The position numbers were made by a program, and so were the translations under genes. DNA of 64,000 bases from Octopus vulgaris (Eukaryota). How positions within the stretch are numbered: the stretch's first letter is position 1; each line of letters starts with the position of its first letter. The stretch spans positions 151,156,001-151,220,000 of the forward strand of contig OX597814.1 in NCBI GenBank assembly GCA_951406725.2, written 5' to 3'. The notes below the pieces were generated by a model. It was not told where the DNA came from and searched no databases. It saw only the letters and a program-made list of their open reading frames with translations. Below, piece after piece: positions 1,300 through 41,648 of the stretch.

Positions 1300-3333
1300 A
1301 CCACCATCATCATCACCTCCAATCGAGAACATTAACAACTTTGGAATCAAGGAAGCAACAACTGCAGGACAGTATGAGAACCCTCATAACCGACCAAAGA
1401 GCTGCAGATGAAGCCTGGGCTATTAAAAACATCAAGAATAATCCTAAAGTCTTTTACTCCTTTGCAAAAACACATAGGACCACAGTCTCCTCTATCGGCC
1501 CAGTGGCTGACGGAAACGGCATCCTTCACAGTGATGCCGGAGATATAGCTGAGATCCTGCAAAGTCAATACAGCTCTGTCTTCATTAACCCTTATTTAGT
1601 TGACTCAAGCAATTTTGCTTGTGAATCCTCAACATGTCCTTTCCGACATAAACTTCGACGCCACTGATATCCTAGCAGCAATAAAAGAAATCAAATCTGA
1701 CTCAGCAGTGGGTCCGAACTGGTTCCCTGATAGAGTGTTAAAGGAATGTAGACAGCAACTTGCAGCTCCTCTTGCAAATCTCTGGAAGAAATCACTGGAT
1801 GCCGGTTTTACCCCTCAAAACTTTCTCTCCCATTCAGTCGTTCCTATCTTTAAAAAGGGGAATAAATCGCTCCCTGTAAACTACTGTCCAATCTCACTCA
1901 CCTCACATATCATCAAAGTATTTGAGAAAGTGTTGAGATCAAGAATAACAGCCTTCCTAGAACAAAATCATCTCCTAAATTGCAACCAGCATGGCTTTCG
2001 TGGTAGGAGGGACTGTCTAACACAGCTCTTCCACCACTTTGATGACATCTTAAATGCACTAAGTGAGGGCTCCAACATCGATGTCATATACCTTGATTTC
2101 AGCAAGGCCTTTGATAGAGTCAACCACAATATACTGTTCAAAAAACTATCCAACGCCGGAGTCGGTGGAAAGCTACTTCAATGGATTGGATATTTCCTAA
2201 CAAACAGGACCCAGCATGTTGAGGTTGATGGCATCCTCTCAGGACCAGCAAAAGTCATCAGCGGAGTCTCGCCGGGTACTGTGCTGGGTCCACTTCTTTT
2301 TATTGTCTATATCGATGACATTGCAGATTCCAATGAACATAGCACCATAAAAATATTTGCAGATGATTCTAAGCTCAAGAAAGTCATTAAGGGAGCATAT
2401 GATCGAACAATGTTTCAATCAGACCTATGCACAGTAACCCAGTGGGCACAAAAAAACAATATGCAGTTGAACGAAGAAAAATTTGAGCTCATACACTTTA
2501 GAAGTGAGAGAACACTCAAACAACCAAACACGCTACCGTCGGGAGACCTACTTGAACCGTCGAATAATATCGGGGACTTAGGTGTAACTGACGACAGCAA
2601 CCTTAGTTGGAGTGTGCACATCAACAAAAAAGTCGATTTTGCCCGCAGAATGTGCTCATGGATCCTCAGAACTTCCTAAATCTAGGGATCATGAAACCAT
2701 CGTCCTTCTCTTCTCCACATTCGTTAGGCCCCACCTCGAATACTGCTGCCCATTGTGGTCTCCCTACAAAAAATAAGCCATAATGAGGATCGAACCGCCA
2801 CAAAGATCAATCACAAAAATATAAATGGCATGATGGCACTTGATTATTGGGCTCGACTTAAACAGCTGAAGCCCTCTTCTCTGCAATGCCGCCGTGAGCG
2901 ATACATTATTTGCACCATGTGGAAAATATTCCACCAATATTATCCAAATGATATTGGCATTATGTTTACAATTCACCCAAGACTAAGCCCCCGTGCAATG
3001 CGTCCCCTACAAAGGTCGAGATCACATCGCATAAGAACATTGCGACACAATTTCTTCACTGCAAATAGTCCTGTACTTTTCAATGTTATCTCAAAAGAAA
3101 TTAAAGTAGAAAAAGACCTCACAACTTTCAAACGGTGCCTGGACAAATTCCTCCAGGAAATATCGGATAAACCACCTACACCTGTATACGTTTCAACCAA
3201 CAACAACTCTCTGTTCGAGTGGTCTATGGTGTTTCGAAATAATTAACTAAAAGACTTATCCATGTGGTGCTATTGAGTTAGTCATGGCCTGGGCTGAAAA
3301 TAGCCGAAACCAATCTAAGTTATCTAAGTTATC
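1300..3333 (+). mobile_element. 5'-truncated, frameshifted CR1-clade LINE (RT ORF2 remnants)
   Basis: ORFs 1341-1667, 1600-2679 and 2755-3246 carry NQHGF, YLDFSKAFDRV, GTVLGPLLF and FADD; RPHLEYCCPLWSP lies in another frame. Tail is (atctaagtt)n at 3313-3333. Confidence 0.93.
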
Positions 3334-7444: not shown

Positions 7445-10010
7445 CTGGCTCACAAATACTCTGAAGTTAGGCAAATGCTCTACATCAGATAGAGCAGCGG
7501 AACTGCTCTTTAATCTAATAGATGAATACTTCCTGACTCAGCTAGTGCTCGAACCAACGAGACAGAATAAAACGATCTTGGATCTGGTATTGACCAATCA
7601 CTCTAGCTTTGTTCACAGTATTTCAGTTGAAAAAACTCTCCTCTCAGACCACGACATGGTACTCTGCAATTTTAATTCCCGACATATAAAAACCAAACCA
7701 GCCAATCCCACTCCATGGCACTCATTTGACAACATAAACTTCCATAAAGCGGACTGGGGAGCAATCAGAAAGGATCTGTCTTTCATCGACTGGTCTTTTA
7801 CTCTCAATTCCACCCATATTGAGACCGCATGGCAGCACTTTGACAACATTGTCACCTATACATGCTCTAAACACGCTCCCACGAAATCTACTAACACAAA
7901 CAGAAACCGGCTCCCTAAAAAGAAAAAAACACTCATCAGGTGCATCAAAAGACTCAACCAAAAAAATCAACCAATTAAAATATTCCCACATACAACATTC
8001 ACATTCAACAACAATGAAAAGGCTAGAGCTGGAAAAACTTCATCTGCAGACCGACATGAAAACCTCCATTGAAAATCAAAGAGCTGTGGAGGAACAGTGG
8101 GTAATCAAAAACATCAAACAGAACCCAAAAGTGTTCTATTCTTATGCAAATAAGCATAGAACCACTGTCTCACCTATTGGGCCATTGATTGATGATAACG
8201 GCATTCCCTAAGACGATGCTAAAGAAATGGCAGAAATACTGCAGAAACAATACTGCTCTGTCTTTAGTGTTCCCACTGATATTAACGTAAGAGAAGCGAA
8301 CGAAGTTGACTCCCAACATAAAATCTCAGACATAACCTTCACTGCCACTGACATCGTAGCAGCAATAAATGAGATCAAATACTACTCTGCTGTAGGTCCT
8401 GACAGAATCCCCGCTAGTCTCCTGAAGGAATGTAGACACCAATTTGCAGTCCCTCTGACCAACCTCTGGAGAAATTCGTTAGACGCAGGTTATATACCGA
8501 AACAGTTTCTATCCCAGTCAGTCATCCCGGTTTTCAAACAGGGAAACAGATCCCTCGCAGTCAACTATCGCCCAATCTCACTCACCTCCCACATCATTAA
8601 AGTGTTTGAAAGAGTGTTAAGATCAAGGATAGCTGACTTCCTGGAGACCCACAAACTCCTAAATGCAAATCAGCATGGCTTTCGCTGTGGCAGGGTCTGT
8701 CTAACACAGCTCTTACACCACATTGAAGATGTACTCAAAGCCTTGGGAACAGGTTCGAACTCTGATATCATATATCTTGACTTCAGTAAAGCGTTCGACA
8801 GGGTAGACCATAATATCCTACTCTCAAAATTGGCAAATGTTGGAATCCGTGGAAAAGTTCTACACTGGATTAAGTATTTCCTGGCGAATAGAACACACCA
8901 TGTTGTAGTTGATGGAGTCCACTCAAGCCCAGCAAAAGTCACCAGCGGTGTCCCCCAGGGGACTGTCTTGGGTCCGCTACTTTTCATAATTTACATAAAC
9001 AACCTTTCCAGTGTCGTACATTACTGCAAAGTGAAAATATTTGCTGATGACACTAAACTCCAGCAAATCGTGAATGAAGAAGCAGACCGAACTCAACTCC
9101 AGTCTGATCTATATGCTGTGAGTCAATGGGCAGACAGAAACAAAATGCAACTGAACGAGGGAAAATTTGAGCTGATGCATTTTGGAAGAAATTCCTCACT
9201 AAAACAGCCATACTCTCTTCCTTCAGGGGAACCGCTCACAGCCTCTAACAGTATCAGAGACCTGGGTGTAATTGTTGATGACGATCTCAGTTGGAGTGCA
9301 CACATCAACAAGAAGGTCGATATAGCTCGTAAGATGAGTTCCTGGATCTTAAGAACTTTCCGGTCCAGAGAACAAGGTGTCATCATACCACTTTTCTCCT
9401 CCTTTGTACGGCCACACCTTGAATACTGCTGCCCACTATGGTCTCCCCATACAAGACAAAACATCTCGAGGATTGAATCACCCCAGAGGGCACTCACTAA
9501 ACGAATTGAAGGCATGGCTGCTCTCGATTATTGGGATCGACTTAAAGCCTTCAAACTCTACTCTCTCCAGCGTCGCCGTGAGCGGTACATCATTTGTACG
9601 ATGTGGAGAATATACCGCCAACTTTGCCCAAACGACCAGAACGTTAGCTTCAAGGTTCATCTAAGACTGGGACCACGGGCCATACGTCCCCTGCCCAATT
9701 CAAGATCACAGCATACATGTACACTGCAACATAATTTCTTTTCCTCAACAGGCCCTGCCCTATTTAACATTGTCCCGAAAGTGATCAAAGAGGAAAAGGA
9801 TCCCATCAACTTTAAACGGAGTCTGGATAGATTCCTTCAAGGAATACCAGATAAGCACCCATAATTAGATACAACTCACCCAACAAAATCTCACTACTTG
9901 AATGGACCATAAACAAAACTTGACTTAAGCAGGATTCAAATAATCCTATCAGGTGGTGCTATTAAGTTAGACATGGCCTGGACCAATCTTTGGTCGAAAC
10001 ATATCTAAGT
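7445..10010 (+). mobile_element. 5'-truncated CR1-clade LINE (end of APE domain plus RT), inserted in (TA)n
   Basis: APE C-terminal motifs [15 protein letters not shown] and LSDH; RT ORF 8227-9864; frameshifts upstream. 3' end atatctaagt matches the copy at 1300-3333. Confidence 0.95.
8227..9864 (+). CDS. LINE ORF2 reverse transcriptase domain (545 aa uninterrupted, part of a truncated element)
   Basis: NYRPISLTS, NQHGFR, YLDFSKAFDRVDH, GVPQGTVLGPLLF, FADD, RDLGV, RPHLEYCCPLWSPH. Confidence 0.85.
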   Translation: MAEILQKQYCSVFSVPTDINVREANEVDSQHKISDITFTATDIVAAINEIKYYSAVGPDRIPASLLKECRHQFAVPLTNLWRNSLDAGYIPKQFLSQSVIPVFKQGNRSLAVNYRPISLTSHIIKVFERVLRSRIADFLETHKLLNANQHGFRCGRVCLTQLLHHIEDVLKALGTGSNSDIIYLDFSKAFDRVDHNILLSKLANVGIRGKVLHWIKYFLANRTHHVVVDGVHSSPAKVTSGVPQGTVLGPLLFIIYINNLSSVVHYCKVKIFADDTKLQQIVNEEADRTQLQSDLYAVSQWADRNKMQLNEGKFELMHFGRNSSLKQPYSLPSGEPLTASNSIRDLGVIVDDDLSWSAHINKKVDIARKMSSWILRTFRSREQGVIIPLFSSFVRPHLEYCCPLWSPHTRQNISRIESPQRALTKRIEGMAALDYWDRLKAFKLYSLQRRRERYIICTMWRIYRQLCPNDQNVSFKVHLRLGPRAIRPLPNSRSQHTCTLQHNFFSSTGPALFNIVPKVIKEEKDPINFKRSLDRFLQGIPDKHP

Positions 10011-13098: not shown

Positions 13099-13630
13099 TT
13101 AATATTCCTGGCCCAGGGTGTTTAAACTTGGTCTAAATTTTTTTATGAAATACAGTTCTTTATTTTGGCGTTGCGTGAAGGTTGCGTTGTCACTGAATTT
13201 ATAGAGCGGATAAGTTGTAAATTTCGGATTTACATTTCCAGCACATCTATCTATGTGTCCGCTGACCGGTATTTTCCGGTAATCAGGGTTTCTAATTTGT
13301 GATTTATGCACCGCCATCCTGTTACGTAAGCTATTTTTTGTATGGCCTATATACTGCCTATTGCAGCCTGCGCATGTTATGACGTAAATTAAGTTTTCTG
13401 ATGCGCAGGTGAAGTTTGCTCTAATGGTGAACTGGTGGCCTTGTTCCAGTATAAATTCTGATCCTTCTATCAAGATGACACAGATTCCGCAGTTGGGCCT
13501 TCCACATTTTCTAACTGCTGGTTTTGTGGTTGATGTTGAGTGCAGTTTAGCTTGGGTTAAAATCCTTTTCAAGGATTTTGGTTGCCGTTTACTTTTAATG
13601 ATGGTGTGTGTTTCGAGGATCCGGTTCATC
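13099..13630 (-). CDS. GIY-YIG endonuclease of a Penelope-like element (C-terminal fragment)
   Basis: RQPKSLKRILT linker, CGRPNCGIC, FTCASENLIYVITCAGCNRQYIGHT...LRNRMAVH, ELYFIKKFRPSLN. Confidence 0.88.
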
Positions 13631-13726
13631 ATATACACATATGAGAGAGAATCCACTTTAGTGGATTCTCTCTTATATGTGTATTAATAATATTTACTGA
13701 ATCTCAGTTTTTTCACCCTCATTTTG

Positions 13727-28070: not shown

Positions 28071-28901
28071 TGGGATGGTATAAAAAATTTCCCGGACTAG
28101 TTCTGTAGCGAGCCAACAGATGGCAGCACACGGTTGCGTACGCAGAGAGAGCTAGCAGTGACCTTCATGAGGCAGTGTGCCGAGCGACTCGCTGTGTTTA
28201 CTTTGCAAATTGTGAAATTTGTGTTTTTGTGTTCACGTGTATGCTGTAGTCTGTGTGGTTTTGTCCTGGACAGGAAGCTGGAACAACGAGCTAACGGGAA
28301 ACTTTGCGTTAACCTTGAGAAGTCCGCTACAGAGAAATTGAGCATACTTCGGCAACCTTTCGGTGACGAGGCAATGGGCCGTACGCAATGTTTTCAGTGG
28401 CGCAGGCGCTTCAAAAGCGGAAGAACATCCCTGGGAGACGACGAGCGATCTGAAAGACCTCCCACGAGCGTCACTCCCAGAAATGTAGTATTGTGCATCA
28501 GGAATTCGTCTCCCAGGGTTAGACTGTCATTTTGAGAGTTCTGTTGTGACATTTGGAAGCGTGTGGGGTAGGACATTCAGCGAAAGCGACCGGATCTGTG
28601 AAGCACAAAGAATTGGATTCTTCACGACGACAGTGTACCCTGTCACTAAGTTCTCCTCACTCGTGAGTTTCTCACCAAAAGCAACATGATATCACTTCTG
28701 TATCCACCAGATTTAGCTCCTACGAACTTCAATCTCTTCTCGACGCACTTACGGAAAACGAATTCCAGGCCGGATTCCAAAAGTGGAAGGAATGCTGGAA
28801 CCGGTGAATTGCTGAATGAGATGATGTCAAAACTTAGATAAATGTTTTTATTTTTTTATCATTAAACATAACTAGTCCTGAAACTTTTTTATACCACTTC
28901 G
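28071..28901 (+). mobile_element. Internally deleted mariner transposon
   Basis: TIRs tggtataaaaaa..tcc.ggactagtt flanked by TA. HTH region LEQRANGKLCVNLEKSATE...FQWRRRFKSGRTSLGDDERS; later WILHDDSVPCH and PPDLAP remnants. Confidence 0.88.
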
Positions 28902-32740: not shown

Positions 32741-33695
32741 ATGTATATATACATATATATGTGTATGTGTGCATGTATATAGACATACGTCTGTGCATGT
32801 ATATGCATGTTTGTATGTCTATGCATGTTTGCATGTATAGGCCTTATTCAGTTATTATTTGAAGATTCTTTGCAAATAGAGTAAGAGCCAGTTTCTAACC
32901 TAAATCCAAGGTTCCTTCATTGGAATTTCAATAACATCAACAGGTTATTTTGGCATGTATGTATATGTGCAGTATTTGAAGTCAATGCATGTTCAGATTT
33001 GTATTTTTTTGTTTTATGCATGCATTCTCATGCATATAGTTGCATGTCTAGACATGTGCATATAAACTTCTGGAACATTTTCCAGATTTTTAGTCCCAGT
33101 GATTGCTTAGAAAAATGTAGTCTCGAATCAGTTTTCTCCTTTCTGATTTTGAGTAGCCTAATTTCTCAAGATTGGCATGTAGTTAAGATACTACAGCTAG
33201 AAAGAATGTTTACCTGTTGAGCTGTTGTTTTCGTTCTGTTCCTCGGTTGTGTTGTTGTTGATGTTGTTTCCAGCTATGTTGCTTGTAGTAACTCTCTGCA
33301 TGTTAAATTCAAGCTTCAGTCGAAAATCTCTACGATCTTGAATAAAAGGCTCCCTCAGTTAATTTATCTGAAGATTAACCAATTATTTTACAGGTCTGAT
33401 AGAGTGGCTTTAAAGCTGGAGATAGTATTCATCGTATTTTCAATACATAGTCGCCCACGCCAAATACGCGACTTGTCCCTTCGAGTGTGGTATGTATGTT
33501 GGAGTGTATGTGTGTGTTCATATCTGTGAGCATCGCTTAGAATATTTTTGCATACAGTTTAGCTTCACTGCCTTGTTTAACTCCTTGTTGCAGTTGGTTA
33601 CTGCTTATTTCTTTTATCTTAGCTGTTTGCTTATTAAACAGTACACAAATCTTATAAATGGTTGAGTCCATAAGTGATTTTATTCTACTTGACAG

Positions 33696-33779
33696 GTGCA
33701 ACAGGAAATATACCAAGGTTGGCAGCGTTATCAATTGTGGTATGGGGCGAGCAACCACGACATAAACGCGTTCACGTAG
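33696..33779 (+). CDS. Terminal coding exon A of a class B (secretin-family) GPCR: VQQEIYQGWQRYQLWYGASNHDINAFT*
   Basis: Acceptor ttttattctacttgacag|GTG. A phase-0 exon starting VQxEI..W matches class B helix 8 and the conserved NGE|VQ intron position. Confidence 0.62.
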   Translation: MQQEIYQGWQRYQLWYGASNHDINAFT

Positions 33780-33875
33780 AACAAAAATATCGACAGAGCT
33801 TGTACGTTGAACTTTGATCGTTCAGTGTCACATTAATGATAAAACAAAAAATATCCATGAAAAGGATCATCATCG

Positions 33876-33909
<34 letters not shown>

Positions 33910-35559
33910 TTTGAAATAACGAAGTTTGTCCCCTGTAATCGAAACATCTGTTGTGTTCGTTTTTGCTTTCTCTGGGACAGTAATAGAACTTAGATTTAAC
34001 GCTGTGAACGAATGAATTGCTCGTTAATTGAACTCTCTTCCTGCCGCTTAGAAAGAGATAAGAGTGAACTGTATGTCGTGTTTATTTCACTGCCGCCTCG
34101 TTTGTCTGTGACCAAAAGAGAGTGATTGTGCTCTTGGTGCGTTGTTGTTGCTGCTATTGTTCTTGTTCCTGCTTGGCTCCCTGATGTAGCAGTGCAATGA
34201 TCAAAGGCCTTCAAGCCGTAACCATTATCGGGAATTCTTTTTTCACGAATTGTGTACTCTTGATTATATTATCCACACACATTGGAGGATGTAATCTGGA
34301 GTACATTTATTCATTTATTTTTTGTAGATTTTTATTTCTTCATAAATCTTTTGTTTATTTCTATAGATCATACGGCGTAATTATCAGGTTTAAGTAAACC
34401 ATTAGACGAGTCGTTACAGCATCCGATAAATTGTCTTATGGTAACCAATCTGGATCTCTCCACTCAAAGTTCTAATCTCACCGGCTTCAACTTTGCCTTT
34501 CATTCGGGATCGATAAGTAAAGTACCAGTCTTGTATTTAGGTCGATTCTTCCCCTCCTCTCACTATTTCTGTCATTGCTTCAGTTTTTCTCATTCCAGAA
34601 GATATCGATTGTGATCAGAATTGTGGAGGGATGGGCACCACCAGGTCTAAAAATAAGGAAAACATACCATATGTCATGACTTCGCCCCTATGACTCCATC
34701 AAGGGGGTGAAGTTCTAAAGCAAAACAATACAAAGATTTGGTTGCCATTTCTAGAAGGCCTAGAGACCACGTGAAGGCACTGTTTCGCTGGCTCGGCCCT
34801 TAGTATGTATTTGAAGTGGGAATCAAGTGTTCTACACAATAGAAAATGTATTTACAACTCAGTAGACTTAGCCCATAAATGGTTAAATTTATCGAAAATT
34901 AGTAACAAATTGATTATTTGGTTCATGACCCCTTAACTGGTAAGGCTAACTGCAACCGTATGTCAATAGTAATTTTCAAGTTCGCTTTGCTTTTGTGTAT
35001 GTGTGTATGTGTATATATGTATGTATATGAATCACAGATATAATAGGAGAAAATGTGAACTTTTGTAGGTGGTGGAGTGCAATTGTGTGGATATGTATGT
35101 GTGCAAAGTACGTGTGAGTGTGAAATCTAGATAGGAGAAAATATCTGTTCATCATTAGCGCTATTATGTGTATAACTGTGTGCACATGTCTGTATGTATA
35201 TGTGTAAAAACTTAAACACCAAAAGGCTAGCGGGCTTACACTATTTTGCTTAATCCGTCTAAATTCTAAATACAAATCCCTTTATAGTCGATACTCTTTT
35301 TCTTCACACAACCCAAAATTGATAAAAACAGTTTAAAAATAAAGAGTTAAGGTCAAAGTGTCAATGGCATGAATTTGCATAATTAAGTTAAAGGGTAGTG
35401 TACCGATTGCCATACGCAAACAGTTCTTAATTGAAATTTATTTTTAGTTGGAGAAAGTGTCAAAAGCTCAGTGATAAATGTTAACGGACTCTCGAAGAAA
35501 GGGAAAATAATTTCAATAAAGTATTGTAAAAGTGTTTCAACCTATAATTCCGGTTTGCT

Positions 35560-36052
35560 GATACGCGGATAGGAAAGCCTTCTTTTTTCTGTCGAGTGCT
35601 TATATGCTCCTTTATTAGATTATTTTCCTTAGTCATTGCACGGTGATCGACATAAGCTTTAAGCATATATAAAAACACCATTATTATTATTTGCAGAATT
35701 GTAAATCACGGTGCCGTATAAGAAAAAAGCCATTCGCACCGAAAGCATATACGAAGTTTGTTTACATAAAAACAAATACGAACTAATATATAGTTCTTAA
35801 ATTTGAAAGAAAAGGCGAGGCTGATTCGCTGGTGTAAAGGTAATACACTTAGTCGCGTTAACAAAGGGATGTGGGTTCGCCTCCCACGCAGATAGGAAAG
35901 CCTTCTTACTTCTGTCGAGTGCTTATATGCTCCTTTATTAGACTATTTTCCTTAATCATTTCACAGTGTTCGTGATAAGCTTTGAGCTTACATAAAAATA
36001 CCATTATTATTACGATGCCGTAATAAAAAAAAAAACTATTCGCACCGAAAGT
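35560..36052. repeat. Diverged ~170-bp direct duplication with a tRNA-like head before the second copy
   Basis: acgc(g/a)gataggaaagccttct...ttcgcaccgaaag at ~35563-35745 and ~35886-36051. Confidence 0.7.
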
Positions 36053-37756
36053 AGGCAGGTAGATTGATTGTGAAAATAGACTTTGGGATTTCACCAACCA
36101 GGAAGAACATACGAATCGACTAAATGAATTTGCTTTAAAGGCATGATCAGGATTCAGTTACTTTCCTCTGGTTGCTTGATGCCAAATTTCTGCTATCTAG
36201 GTCTGAAACTGTGAAATTAGAGCATATATACACTCGTTTACTTTTATATGTCAATATGTAAACAGGATTGGGCTAAACTAGACCGTTTGACAAAGTAATT
36301 CAAATTTGGTCGTGCGCCATTAATTATGTGGCTTACCAATACAGCGTATTGGAGATACAATTCATTAGCAGATAAACAAACACATATTTAAGAAATATAT
36401 ATTTGGTCTCGCCGTAAAAATAGACCAGGTATTTTAATCGATGTTTATTTTGTTCCATAATGTGTTGCTTATCTACGTTCTCTCGGCAACTAGAGGGAAA
36501 ATAAGTAAATCGTGACGTTGCTTCTTCTCTATCTACATAGAGATATACTAACGTGTGTGTACGAGTGTACGTGTTTAAGTTTGGGGCGGGAGTTAGTTTT
36601 GACTAGAATTGCAAACTTCGTTTTTGACTAGATCTTCAAGTTTAATCAACCAGAAGTTGACTGAGCCGTCAGCCGAAGCTCACTGTCCCAGTCAAAACTA
36701 GTTGTATAATAAATTTTACTCCAATTTAGTATTGAGTCTCCTCGTCAGTAAATATTCTGTTGTTACTCTTTAAATTTCTTTAGAATAATAACCTCAAAAT
36801 TAATACACATGCACATACATATGTTGTACATGATAAAGCAAACGGTTTAGATTTTCGGTTGTAAAATAAACTTTAGACACAATCAATCATTCTACAAGTA
36901 AAAATCCAATATCAAAAAAAAAATCTTGCACAAAACCGTTTGCAAGAATCAAACCATGAATTTGTTGTAAACTAGTCGACTGTGTCATCCATTGCACCCA
37001 AAAGCTCCCAGCTCAGTTCGTCTGCTGAGATTAAAGCGTATAAAATGCTGTTGCGCAAACCAAATCAGAATCCTTGTTATTTTCGGAGCACTTAACTTTA
37101 GTCTGCAGAGAGATTATTTCACGTTTCGTTTCCTTAATCATTTAACATGCTTTTCGTAACTGAGATTCTCCGTGCTATTGCGATTGAAACAATAACAAGC
37201 ATACTAAATTCTAGTTGTAGAAGAAAAATAAGGTAAAAATTTTCCATTATAAAATAAACTTTAAATTAAATTTGACGCTTTACAAGCATAAATCCAGAGC
37301 AAGAAAAATACGTGGAGAATTTAAATTGTGGAAACTATGTTAAAATGAAAATATAAAACGTGAAAAATTAAATTATCTCTCCACAGCTTAGAGTTAAGTG
37401 CTATGAAAATACTGAGGATTCTCGTAAACAGACGAAATGGGTAAGTAACTTCTGTAACTGCACTTTATAAGCAATAATATGTGATTGCAGCTCTCTGAGA
37501 GTGCTTTGGTACAATGGTTAACACGGCTAAATGATTTACGACAGATTCGGAGATCGGTTCACGCGTGTGGGTCACCATTATATACCTGTGCATATTTATC
37601 CCCATGTCTTGAACACGCAATCGTATGATGATTTAAAATGTATTCCTTATACATATGTATGCATTATGTTCTGTGACTTTGTATTACATTGTATTTGTAT
37701 CTCTATACATATAAGGACGCATGTAATTATATGTGTAGAGAGAAAATTACATAAAG

Positions 37757-37809
37757 TTATATATATATATATATATATATATATGCCACGTTTGCTTTCT
37801 CACTATATG

Positions 37810-37851
<42 letters not shown>

Positions 37852-37873
37852 ACGTTTGCTTTCTCACTATATG

Positions 37874-37950
<77 letters not shown>

Positions 37951-38015
37951 CGTATATATCTATATATATACATACATACATACACACACACATATATGTG
38001 GTGCATGCATATATC

Positions 38016-38046
<31 letters not shown>

Positions 38047-38260
38047 TTACATATATATATATATATCTTTAGCTTTCTCTCTTGTTGATTTTCATATATA
38101 TACATATCTTTATATATATGTATATATCTTTATTTACATATATATATATATTTATACATATATATATATTTACATATATATATATGCATACATATATCTA
38201 TATATCTATATATACATATATATATATATATATATAAATATATACATATATATGTATATG

Positions 38261-38300
<40 letters not shown>

Positions 38301-38362
38301 TATCTTTATATATATATATTATACATACATATATATCTTTACATATATATATACATATGTAT

Positions 38363-38398
<36 letters not shown>
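37757..38398. repeat. (TA)n/(TG)n compound microsatellite with duplicated ccacgtttgctttctcactatatgtatgt spacer
   Basis: Direct reading. Confidence 0.93.
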
Positions 38399-38401
<3 letters not shown>

Positions 38402-39135
38402 CATTAATTTCTAAACCTTTCCTTTATCTTTTTTAATTGGATCTGATATTTGGACTTACATACAGAGAGATAGAGAGAAAGGAAGAGAAGGGAGACTCCT
38501 TGATATTTATATTAATATGAATAATTAATTTACATAAATGTAGCTGAACATGACATAAGTTAAAAGAAATATGCTTATGGTATTATGCAAAGGATGTTTT
38601 CTTAACATATATTCTTCATTGCACATTCAGTTCATGAACACTGTTATGTATTACCAGTGCCATGTATTTCAATATTGCCAACGTCATTTGTTTAGCTGTT
38701 GTCAATGTTATATATCTCAGCCCAGTGATAGATTGGCAGAATCATTAGTACGTTTCACAAAAGCATCAAGGTCTTTGCTCCAGCACTTTACGCACCCAAT
38801 TCAAACCCGGCCAAAATCAACTTTACCTTATATCTTTTCGTGTTTCATGAAATAAAGTACCTGTTAAGATGTGTGTGTGGAGAGGAGAGAGAGCGAGAGA
38901 AAATAAGTTTAAAAAGAACAATTCAAACTTTTTGAGAGATCCAAAAAGCGAGAAAAAATGATTTCTAATAAATTCATCATATTCATAAAAAAACAGCCAG
39001 AGCAAGTAATAAGAATATGAAAATAATAGTTGAAAAATACCGTTATAGGTATAAATATACCATAAACAAGTAATAAAAAATGGAGGAGAAAAAGATGTTG
39101 AATCAGAATTAGATTTAATACAAAATTGGATTCAA

Positions 39136-39233
39136 TACATACGCACGTTTCAAAAGACAATACAAATATGTAAAAAAAATTATAATCATAGTAATTATAA
39201 TTAAATTTATGCATTGTCATTCTCATCAGTGTA
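39136..39233 (-). ncRNA. Type I hammerhead with long stem II (family C, left arm)
   Basis: taca-CTGATGA-gaatgacaatgca...tgtattgtctttt-GAAAC-gtgc-GTA-tgta. Confidence 0.72.
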
Positions 39234-39352
39234 AGAAATTTTTGGAAGGACATCAAACGAGGTTTAATAAAATAAAATATTACCTCATCTGTATTCTCCC
39301 ATATCGTATCTTATCTTATTAAGCATTTTTTTATGTCCTTTCAAAAATTCCT

Positions 39353-39455
39353 CACACTGATGAGAATGACAATGCATGAATTTAATTATAATTATATAGT
39401 ATGATTATTATTTTTCCTTACATATTTGTATTGTCTTTTGAAATGTGCGTATGTA
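39353..39455 (+). ncRNA. Type I hammerhead with long stem II (family C, right arm)
   Basis: caca-CTGATGA-gaatgacaatgca...tgtattgtctttt-GAAAT-gtgc-GTA-tgta; GAAAC>GAAAT is a CpG-type change. Confidence 0.65.
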
Positions 39456-39571
39456 TTGAATCCAATTTTGTATTAAATCTAATTCTGATTCAACATCTTT
39501 TTCTCCTCCATTTTTTATTACTTGTTTATGGTATATTTATATCTATAACGATATTTTTCAACTATCATCAC

Positions 39572-39616
39572 ATGTATATATATATATATATATATATATC
39601 TTTACATATATATATC

Positions 39617-39668
<52 letters not shown>

Positions 39669-39681
39669 TTAATATATATAT

Positions 39682-39751
<70 letters not shown>
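39572..39751. repeat. (TA)n microsatellite
   Basis: Direct reading. Confidence 0.95.
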
Positions 39752-39754
<3 letters not shown>

Positions 39755-40444
39755 GTTAACACTTAAAGTACCAGATAGTTTTACTATCTTTCTAGGTAAT
39801 TGTGCAAATATTATAGAAAGTTAAAATGGATTTCATCTTTGAGAACTACAACAAAATTCATGAGAGAAAAAGTATGGAACCCAATGTGCTAACTTTTATA
39901 TGCTTCATGTAATAGTGAAGAGGAAATTGAAGTGGGTAAAAAATGATTGTTTGGTACGTTTAGTTTTAAGGACTAGAATCAATGGTATAAACTTACATCC
40001 TCCCGTCAAAATTGCTAGTCTGAGTTCAAACTGCGACTTAATACGAAATAATATTATATATCTAACTACTCTTAGTATGTTACTTACCATTATGATGGCT
40101 GAGTTGACGATTTTATTTTTCATTTGAATCAGTAGGTAATTCAACACTCTGTGATTCCAAATTTCAAAGGAAAATATGGCAGTGTAGTGACAGTGGTAAC
40201 ACGACTGACGGGAAATTGCAACTATGATTTCGATTCGAATCCTCGAATGTTTATTTCTATTCTATTATGTCCTCCTCTGATCAGATAGAAGTAATACATG
40301 CAACAAGAAATACCTTTAGGGCAACAATTGTGGGTTATCTGCTATTACTTAAATGCAATTACTCACTTACAGGACAATCAATAAGAGAAAAGCTTGGAAT
40401 ACTACAGATGATAAACTAAGTTTGCTTACGATTATAGGCACAAG

Positions 40445-40580
40445 AATGGCTGTGTGGTAAGAAGCTTGCTTCCCAACTACATGGTTCTGGGTTCAGTCCC
40501 ACTGCGTGGCACCTTCGGCAAGTGTCTTCAACTATAGCTTCGGGCTGACCAAAGCCTTGTGAGTGGATTTGGTAGACGAA

Positions 40581-40616
<36 letters not shown>

Positions 40617-40680
40617 GTAGTAGTAGTAGTAGTAACAGAAAAGAGGAATTTCGGTTGTCCTCACGTGGTGGATTGTAATG

Positions 40681-40711
<31 letters not shown>

Positions 40712-41086
40712 ATATAATATGATATATAATATAAATAATATATAAATATATGCATATATACATACATATATGTACATACCTACATATATATGTATATATA
40801 TATATATGTATGTATGTATATATGTATGTATGTGTGTGTATGTATGTATGTATGTATGTATGTATGTATGTATCTGTGTGTCTGTGTTTGTCCTTTCCCC
40901 CACCATCACTTGATAACCAATGTTGGTGTGCTTACGTCCCCGTAACTTAGCGCTTCTGCGAAAGAGACCGATAGAATAATTACTAGGTTTACAAAGAATA
41001 AGTCGTGGGGTGGATTGGTTCGACTATAGGCGGTTCTCCAGCATGGCTGCAGTCAAATGACTGAAACAAGTAAAAGAATAAAAGAA
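40445..41086 (+). mobile_element. SINE family W with internally expanded microsatellites
   Basis: Head at 40448-40585; tail tgtgtttgtcc...gcagtcaaatgactgaaacaagtaaaaga at 40875-41086. Confidence 0.75.
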
Positions 41087-41369
41087 CAAAATCATTGATA
41101 CTCCCTCAGATTGGTTTCGTCTGTTTTCCAATTGCTCTAAGTATAGCTATTACAATTTTGTTAACTAGAGAAGAGTAATAACAAATATTGGCTATTGGCG
41201 TAATCTTCAGTGAATATGCTGGAATTCTGAGGGATGTACATAAATGTTTGTAAATCAAAGTAGCTGGGAGTATGTTTTATACGTAATAAAAATTGATTAT
41301 CGTTTTTTTTTATATCTTAAAATTTACTTTTGGCTTTAATTTTTTTTTCTTTTTTCTTTTTACTTTCAG

Positions 41370-41648
41370 GTTCAAAACGAAATCTACAAAATGTGGCAAA
41401 GGTCACAGCTTAGCGAAATTCCTTGCTTTTATTGTCATTTCTCGTTCTGTAAACGTCATGAATGGAGGCGAAGCCGGAGTTACGATGCTGCTACTAGACC
41501 CTCCGACATAAGCACAGTTGTGTCAATGAGTGTGCTGCAGACACAAGACAAAGAGAGTCCAGTAGGTATGAACTGCATTGACAAACCGCTAAAGGACCTG
41601 GAATATCAGCCGATGATGAACACTACAGGGGTCATTGAAATTAGCTGA
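41370..41648 (+). CDS. Terminal coding exon B of a class B GPCR: VQNEIYKMWQRSQLSEIPCFYCHFSFC...GVIEIS* (92 aa)
   Basis: Strong acceptor (t)n-actttcag|GTT, helix-8 motif VQxEI..W.R, Ser/Thr-rich tail, AATAAA overlapping the stop. Confidence 0.72.
   Translation, partial: VQNEIYKMWQRSQLSEIPCFYCHFSFCKRHEWRRSRSYDAATRPSDISTVVSMSVLQTQDKESPVGMNCIDKPLKDLEYQPMMNTTGVIEIS

Follow-up and report, generated by a model that had tools for sequence, protein, structure and literature searches.

Our analysis indicates that a class B1 G protein-coupled receptor (GPCR) gene of Octopus probably contains a switch between two C-terminal tails, in which a duplicated helix-8 exon (exon A) would act as a stop-containing cassette upstream of exon B, the final exon. 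The window, i.e. the whole stretch of 64,000 nucleotides that was analysed, appears on the evidence available to represent the 3′ end of a single PTH-receptor-like ('cluster B') gene, in which we identified the following features.

33674..33695 (+), acceptor of exon A, with a moderate pyrimidine tract (13/20) and CAG
33696..33801 (+), exon A, a 106-nt duplicated helix-8 exon and putative cassette, based on one 164-nt contig and homology to exon B
33802..33807 (+), donor of exon A, GTACGT, the sole one of 16 GT sites that reproduces the length and end of the contig
33802..41369 (+), intron between A and B, 7.6 kb, no coding exon found, containing TA microsatellites as well as an inverted repeat of 160 bp
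41348..41369 (+), acceptor of exon B, strong, with 19/20 pyrimidines and CAG
41370..41648 (+), coding part of exon B, the annotated last exon with helix 8 and tail, matching CAI9716131.1 at 92/92 amino acids

The initial annotation had placed the start of exon B at 41370 and had assigned to it 92 amino acids with a Cys cluster and many Ser/Thr residues. This was confirmed, with the start directly after a CAG. In an Octopus gene of the secretin/PTH-receptor-like type (XP_052825549.1, XP_014768670.1, CAI9716131.1, XP_036360837.1), this exon is annotated as the last one. It is read for 92 codons to a TGA at 41646-41648 and shares 91/92 amino acids with the O. bimaculoides proteins XP_014768670.1 and XP_052825549.1, and a direct junction from the TM7 exon to B is present in the annotated proteins P0001-P0003 (P0003 being CAI9716131.1). 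Among the proteins found, its Cys cluster is confined to four Octopus proteins. The product of the gene carries the Pfam domains PF00002 (7tm_2) and PF02793 (hormone receptor domain) above cut-off in P0002 and P0047; these domains are encoded outside the window and are linked to it through exon B (91-92/92 amino acids), and neither exon taken singly gave a Pfam match. No TM exons were found anywhere in the window by a motif scan, by tblastn with 123 homologues or by HMM searches of 3,662 stop-to-stop segments, and the upstream intron should therefore exceed 33.6 kb. The lack of TM exons between A and B that had been noted before was thus upheld by tblastn and HMM but had to be widened to the entire window. 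The view of one class B1 GPCR gene is supported.

The best solved relative of the receptor in a PDB ranking was PTH1R (E 2.5e-81; calcitonin receptor E 1.2e-57). A quick, not fully searched tree of 55 chosen rows, with no calcitonin, CRH or PDF receptors among them, placed it with molluscan receptors including the Lymnaea 'Cluster B receptor 2', in a clade of 13 rows (SH-aLRT 88). Ranking and tree are consistent with a PTHR-like or cluster B placement, without making it rigorous; of the candidate subfamilies of the initial annotation, the PTH-like one is favoured over calcitonin, CRH and PDF receptors on the evidence available. Peptides of the iPTH/PXXXamide type are described to activate PTHR-like receptors of Tribolium (PMC7224569, section 7). 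The other molluscan orthologues retrieved have a single helix-8 start per protein and a median tail of 123 amino acids (n=118); a doubled helix-8 start occurs in a Batillaria model.

Exon A encodes a second helix-8 start. Its 27 codons from 33696, directly after a CAG, end with a TAG at 33777-33779, and another 22 nt lead to the donor, giving a length of 3n+1 with an in-frame stop; start, reading frame and stop had been proposed correctly. A and B are identical at 10/14 helix-8 residues and 26/42 nt, and the next best match to the first 14 residues of B reached 6/14 in three places among ~127,900 frame positions on both strands. A profile of 75 distinct non-self receptor tails scored B with 29.3, A with 18.7 and the next site with 7.3 bits. 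A class B1 helix 8 begins with NxEV and has Trp 8.58; both exons supply V1, E4 and W9, and W9 is present in 184/206 other tails. Moreover, both have Tyr at tail position 6, as compared to only one of 206 distinct other tails; that sole other tail (P0294) does not resemble helix 8. This homology and the shared derived residue show a duplication of the helix-8 exon, with two homologous exons in tandem (10/14 amino acids, Tyr6) and no TM exon between them. The earlier suggestion of duplicated helix-8 exons at the conserved phase-0 position agrees with this, given the identity and the profile scores far above background.

Synonymous sites between A and B are saturated (pS 1.10) at a pN of 0.24. 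When 16 changes were placed at random, at least 10/14 identities without a stop were obtained in 1e-5 of trials; under a more lenient null with eight random changes on the branch of A only, protein conservation was not significant (P=0.072). A is an old duplicate of the helix-8 exon within the octopus lineage of this gene. With respect to the ancestral copy, 24 chosen relatives favoured A in 10 and B in 13 cases over residues 1-14, and A in 15 and B in 8 cases over residues 15-21, and the sister protein P0005 is closer to A (46 vs 41; 8 vs -15), which is suggestive of A being the ancestral copy. A repeat linking the flanks of A to those of B was not found. The region 33000-33200 consists of a dispersed repeat (many contigs, 90-95% alike).

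With regard to use in transcripts, B is found in annotated proteins and A in one contig with splice-like ends. This contig of run X20 (164 nt, depth 97.9) matches window positions 33694-33803 with its positions 27-136, with a single mismatch in 110 positions (G>A at 33768), and has 26 letters at one end and 28 at the other that are unlike the genome. It leaves the genome at the GT donor 33802, and its other edge lies at the acceptor AG; the match start at 33694 fits an upstream exon whose last two letters are AG, from the GAG codon for the Glu of N-S-E. The geometry of 28+106+30 is exactly what a cassette exon of 106 nt would give if it were spliced to a further exon, B being the simplest choice. 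We simulated different splicing models in de Bruijn graphs with k=31 (the value given for Logan contigs) and compared them with the length and end points of the contig. A mixture of transcripts including and skipping A gave exactly 164 nt, 33694-33803 and positions 27-136; inclusion only gave 701 nt and genomic DNA 905 nt. The remaining 15 GT sites all failed to fit the contig, and of eight k values only 31 did. For the branch on the left, the upstream exon must also lead into a second path that starts with GT, and such a path is supplied by B. The same numbers would, however, arise if the branches were unspliced introns, or if A were joined to a different exon starting with GT (36201) into which its own intron also runs. 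The contig comes from one run, X20, which is not registered as RNA and whose organism differs slightly (0.67 of the words of exon B), so that inclusion of A in the organism of the window itself is predicted from it. At least half of these words were present in 20 of the 24 sequencing runs listed, none of those 20 being on record as RNA. Runs checked for contigs were 4/24, over 33000-33862 (863 nt), and the flanking exons are assigned putatively, by contig geometry. X3, X9 and X14 had no contig on exon A, and X20 had none in the bins flanking it, which was not used as evidence; a tissue- or species-specific inclusion of A would be compatible with missing contigs in other runs.

The simulations also bear on the claim of the initial annotation that A and B are alternative last exons, which was not supported. 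If A were a last exon, contigs of 238 or 414 nt extending to 33905 would be predicted, and a cassette mixed with an unspliced donor would give 136 nt, whereas the contig departs at the donor 33802 with 28 unlike letters. Donor use, which an alternative last exon would lack, is indicated by this contig from one run, and AATAAA or ATTAAA does not occur after exon A before 35338, ~1.56 kb past the stop. That A is a true last exon which has a 3′ UTR and poly(A) site to itself, alone or beside cassette use and at least in the organism of the window, appears improbable to us, even though contigs lose rare variants, the four runs covered 863 nt, and duplicated exons usually yield homologous C-termini through alternative poly(A) (77 human C-terminal cases; PMC8373072). 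The donor GTACGT has 6/9 matches to the U1 consensus. An internal donor in A (GTATGG, ~33740) is ruled out by the contig, which is unbroken to 33803. The acceptor of exon B is the best of 12 YAG|GT sites between the donor of A and B; of the two acceptors, both initially called good, that of B deserves this description (19/20 pyrimidines) but that of A is just moderate (13/20).

It is even less probable that a second receptor gene in tandem left A behind as its orphan or relic last exon, or that A is a pseudo-exon without use, with a coincidental contig geometry caused e.g. by divergence at both edges. Other molluscs do have tandem copies of the receptor family (one cluster contains several Dreissena gene ids), and the exons upstream are not within the window, the overhangs of the contig being assigned indirectly. 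However, both contig edges lie precisely at AG and GT, and their overhangs are as long as predicted for k=31, no TM exons lie between A and B that could make B a separate gene, and the left-hand branch requires a second GT-starting path from the same upstream exon, as B gives.

In the tail switch that we favour, skipping of A would join the TM7 exon to B and yield the tail of 92 amino acids with 4 Cys and 16 Ser/Thr. Inclusion would produce the order TM7 exon, A and B, with translation stopping after 27 amino acids (0 Cys, 2 Ser/Thr), helix 8 intact from V8.50 to W8.58 (numbering after PMC10166269) and the coding part of B turned into 3′ UTR. The difference in tail length, Cys and Ser/Thr content is as initially proposed, and the roles in palmitoylation and GRK/arrestin binding suggested with it are putative. 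By analogy, folding and G protein coupling should be preserved in the short receptor, and it should show weaker desensitisation or internalisation because its tail has nearly no Ser/Thr and no Cys. In mammals, a stop within 50 nt of the last junction escapes decay (PMC12668114). Provided that A joins B and B is last, the distance from stop to junction is 22 nt, below 50-55 nt, and the A-including mRNA should therefore escape decay by this mammalian rule, assuming no intron after B and that nonsense-mediated decay (NMD) in molluscs does not differ.

Alternatively, A might be a poison exon that is spliced in, with the transcript being degraded or the short receptor non-functional and inclusion merely tuning the amount of the long-tailed form. 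Invertebrate NMD can work independently of exon junctions, A is 3n+1 long with a stop in frame, the lenient neutrality null gave no significance, and exon-A motifs and tail were found in 0/327 proteins retrieved by protein searches. We nevertheless consider this unlikely, since there would be no reason for a poison exon to retain helix-8 residues, which were kept despite saturated synonymous sites, the stop lies only 22 nt before the junction, and the contig has a depth of 97.9 with 1/110 positions different from the window.

The proposed octopus tail switch would be a new instance of a known way to switch GPCR tails, and no principle is overturned, as splicing that yields different C-tails is well known and so is duplication of C-terminal exons. 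The natural pair, with helix 8 kept and either a Cys/Ser/Thr-rich tail or a bare one, would allow a ready test of what the tail does in a protostome PTH-like receptor that has been little studied, and offer a clean case for whether cephalopod NMD obeys the exon-junction rule. The gene models examined need correction, since exon A is in none (4/4 members of one protein cluster and 1/1 of the other). Literature searches on isoforms of the octopus gene found no paper, and splicing or isoforms are not mentioned in the Tribolium and tick PTHR papers.

In mGluR1a/1b, a short exon with a stop, placed ahead of the last exon, replaces the long tail by a short one; this cassette is not known to be a copy of the final exon. 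Human MYL6, which is listed among tandem exon duplications, works through a cassette that carries a stop ahead of a retained last exon, and the mechanism is thus probably not unprecedented. mGluR1, for which C-terminal variants are described (PMC6287019), is a class C receptor, in contrast to the class B1 octopus receptor. C-terminal substitutions by tandem exon duplication likewise give two homologous exons for alternative C-termini of one protein but are ascribed to alternative poly(A) (PMC8373072), whereas the octopus geometry points to a stop-bearing cassette before a retained last exon. The Aplysia tachykinin-related peptide receptor isoforms A/B belong to a molluscan GPCR whose splicing provides two C-tails with different phosphorylation-dependent desensitisation, and may by analogy serve as a functional model, as may be said of the long and truncated forms of NK1R grouped with it; the Aplysia receptor is a class A receptor, and no duplicated helix-8 exon is described in the excerpt of PMC11365428. 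A broader scenario, possible but doubtful, would be that a duplicated terminal exon acquired a donor 22 nt past the stop that it carries and turned into a tissue-regulated, decay-proof switch to a poorly desensitising receptor, with helix-8 exon duplication perhaps repeated in molluscan cluster B receptors (Batillaria) and the conserved pre-helix-8 intron being a recurrent tail-swap site in class B1 GPCRs. According to PMC10166269, which also treats the roles of helix 8, class B1 tails govern phosphorylation, arrestin recruitment and trafficking. Tails of ~30 amino acids are known in other class B1 proteins, e.g. zebrafish GHRHR2.

Exon A and exon B, two related exons encoding helix 8 and the C-tail, are parts of a single class B1 GPCR gene of Octopus, of the PTH-receptor-like type. 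Exon B forms the C-terminal end of the O. bimaculoides 'secretin receptor-like' proteins XP_014768670.1 and XP_052825549.1 (91/92 residues) and is identical to the end of the Octopus protein CAI9716131.1 (92/92 residues). In these annotated proteins the TM7 motif (...N-S-E) abuts exon B directly. No TM exon was found in the whole window, and therefore the intron before exon A must exceed 33.6 kb and no second gene body lies between A and B, which agrees with the initial annotation of a single class B GPCR gene. The full-length Octopus proteins contain 7tm_2 and HRM domains, and the subfamily check proposed at that stage points to a PTH-receptor-like protein, with PTH1R as the closest solved structure (E 2.5e-81; calcitonin receptor 1.2e-57). 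In a quick tree of 55 hand-chosen rows, with tails stripped and without calcitonin, CRH and PDF receptors, the Octopus pair grouped with the Logan protein P0005 (SH-aLRT 100), and a 13-row molluscan clade (88) held the pair together with Lymnaea 'Cluster B receptor 2'. The available text of PMC11551080 presents cluster B receptors as protostome kin of PTH, glucagon and PACAP receptors with expression in the snail CNS, and iPTH/PXXXamide, a peptide originally known from cuttlefish, activates insect cluster B members (PMC7224569, available part).

Exon A: start 33696 after CAG, stop TAG 33777-33779, plus strand, 27 codons
Exon B: start 41370 after CAG, stop TGA, plus strand, 92 codons

Over their first 14 residues the two exons share 10 identities (26/42 nucleotides), while the next best match to these residues among about 127,900 scanned frame positions was 6/14. 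A tail profile made from 75 distinct non-self receptor tails scored 29.3 bits for B and 18.7 for A, compared with 7.3 for the third-ranked site. Judged on sequence, the similarity is beyond chance, and the proposed exon duplication is borne out. Both acceptors had been called good, which holds for B (19/20 pyrimidines), with A moderate (13/20); the exon A donor matches the U1 consensus at 6/9 positions. The predicted short and long tails differ as proposed, with 27 aa, no Cys and 2 Ser/Thr in the A form versus 92 aa, 4 Cys and 16 Ser/Thr in the B form.

Four of 24 listed runs were compared with window positions 33000-33862, and an exon A contig occurred only in X20, the other three being taken as neutral evidence. 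X20 derives from organism D, which is slightly diverged from the organism of the window; the kind of run is not on record, and 0.67 of exon B words were present. Its single contig over exon A (164 nt, depth 97.9) corresponds at record positions 27-136 to window 33694-33803 with one letter different; the match to the genome breaks off at the AG of the acceptor on one side and after the first two letters of the donor GTACGT (33802) on the other. At position 33768 (exon A codon 25) the window has G and the contig A (Ala to Thr), most simply read as a species or allele difference.

We modelled the assembly as unitigs at k=31, filling the upstream exon with random letters. Inclusion plus skipping of a 106-nt exon (33696-33801) gave exactly 164 nt, 33694-33803 and 27-136, the length being 28+106+30, as follows from a GT at the start of each of the two exons and of the donor and from an AG closing the upstream exon. 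Genomic DNA gave 905 nt, inclusion only 701, and a mixture of inclusion and partly unspliced donor 136; the 15 other GT sites, simulated as alternative donors, all failed to reproduce the geometry. Thus the sole transcript-like evidence, one organism-D contig, speaks for exon A as a cassette exon that carries a stop codon. The initial annotation had A and B as alternative last exons; a true last exon is improbable, since the simulation then predicts a unitig of 238 or 414 nt extending to 33905, against a 164-nt contig ending at 33803. Branches from unspliced introns would give identical contig numbers, as would splicing of A to a different exon beginning with GT (e.g. 36201) that is likewise entered from its intron. 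With the identity of the flanking exons taken from contig geometry, exon B is the simplest splice partner, because it has the best acceptor of 12 YAG/GT sites (19/20 pyrimidines) and accounts for both branches. That the geometry is a coincidence, or exon A a relic, seems very unlikely. Inclusion in the organism of the window itself is a prediction, though acceptor, frame and donor of exon A are all intact there.

We consider a protein-coding cassette switch probable. Skipping of exon A, with its weaker acceptor (13/20) and 6/9 donor, would yield the annotated 92-aa tail, and inclusion would yield the 27-aa tail and leave exon B untranslated. Helix 8 would be retained on inclusion, and with it V8.50 and the conserved Trp; the helix-8 Trp is required for CGRP receptor surface expression (PMC10166269, available part). 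Other class B1 proteins also have tails of about 30 aa. A poison or decaying exon is an unlikely reading: the stop lies 22 nt upstream of the 3' junction of A, a distance that would fall inside the NMD escape window of 50-55 nt (PMC12668114, available part) if octopus NMD follows that rule. Because signals for phosphorylation, arrestin and trafficking reside in class B1 tails, less desensitisation is predicted, by analogy, for the short form than for the long form; Aplysia tachykinin receptor isoforms, which differ in desensitisation, offer an analogue (PMC11365428, available part).

Tyr at tail position 6 is common to A and B and present in 1/206 distinct other tails, that single tail not resembling helix 8, which makes A and B sister copies duplicated in this gene's octopus lineage. 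Over 14 codons their divergence is pS 1.10 (synonymous sites saturated) and pN 0.24, and random placement of 16 changes left at least 10 identities without a stop in 1e-5 of trials. Exon A is likely under constraint, as far as 14 codons indicate, short of proof because 8 neutral changes on A's branch alone give P = 0.072. As to which copy is the older, the signals diverge: the sister protein P0005 is closer to A than to B, and 24 relatives divide A:B as 10:13 over residues 1-14 and as 15:8 over residues 15-21.

GPCR C-tail isoforms are already known in molluscs, and a stop cassette ahead of the last exon occurs in mGluR1b and MYL6. Homologous C-termini from duplicated exons, as in octopus A/B, are reported for 77 human cases, where the available text of PMC8373072 holds alternative poly(A) responsible, in contrast to the probable cassette here. 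The novelty is this instance, not duplicated C-termini, stop cassettes or C-tail isoforms as such. The exon A tail occurred in 0/327 fetched proteins, and a literature search without most subscription papers or any supplements found no publication on this octopus tail isoform.

Of two Batillaria attramentaria models of a cluster B paralogue, P0132 has two helix-8 starts 19 residues apart and P0129 has one; the doubling may stem from another helix-8 exon duplication, independent of this one, whose copies gene prediction fused. The Dreissena polymorpha P0023 cluster contains annotated 'isoforms' with two homologous tail versions, but these proteins diverge at numerous sites in the N-terminal and TM parts as well and carry several gene ids, so that tandem genes or alleles are likelier than alternative exons. 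Octopus sinensis XP_036360837.1 (P0047), from the same gene, stops matching inside TM7 and continues into an unrelated tail, neither A nor B, likely a mis-annotation.

Repeats and mobile-element matches in the window:

1600-2676, plus strand, LINE-like RVT_1 reverse-transcriptase ORF in the long intron that precedes exon A
8212-9861, plus strand, LINE-like RVT_1 reverse-transcriptase ORF in the same intron
13102-13683, minus strand, GIY-YIG endonuclease domain match, suggestive of a Penelope-like element fragment
28101-28532, plus strand, weak Mos1-type HTH match under the Pfam cut-off, possible mariner remnant
35563-35689 and 35886-36012, 127-nt direct repeat in the A-B intron, 89% identical, 323 nt apart
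39023-39182 and 39409-39568, 160-bp inverted repeat in the A-B intron, 96% complementary, 226 nt apart

The inverted repeat at 39023-39568 is a MITE-like hairpin and a potential A-to-I editing substrate.
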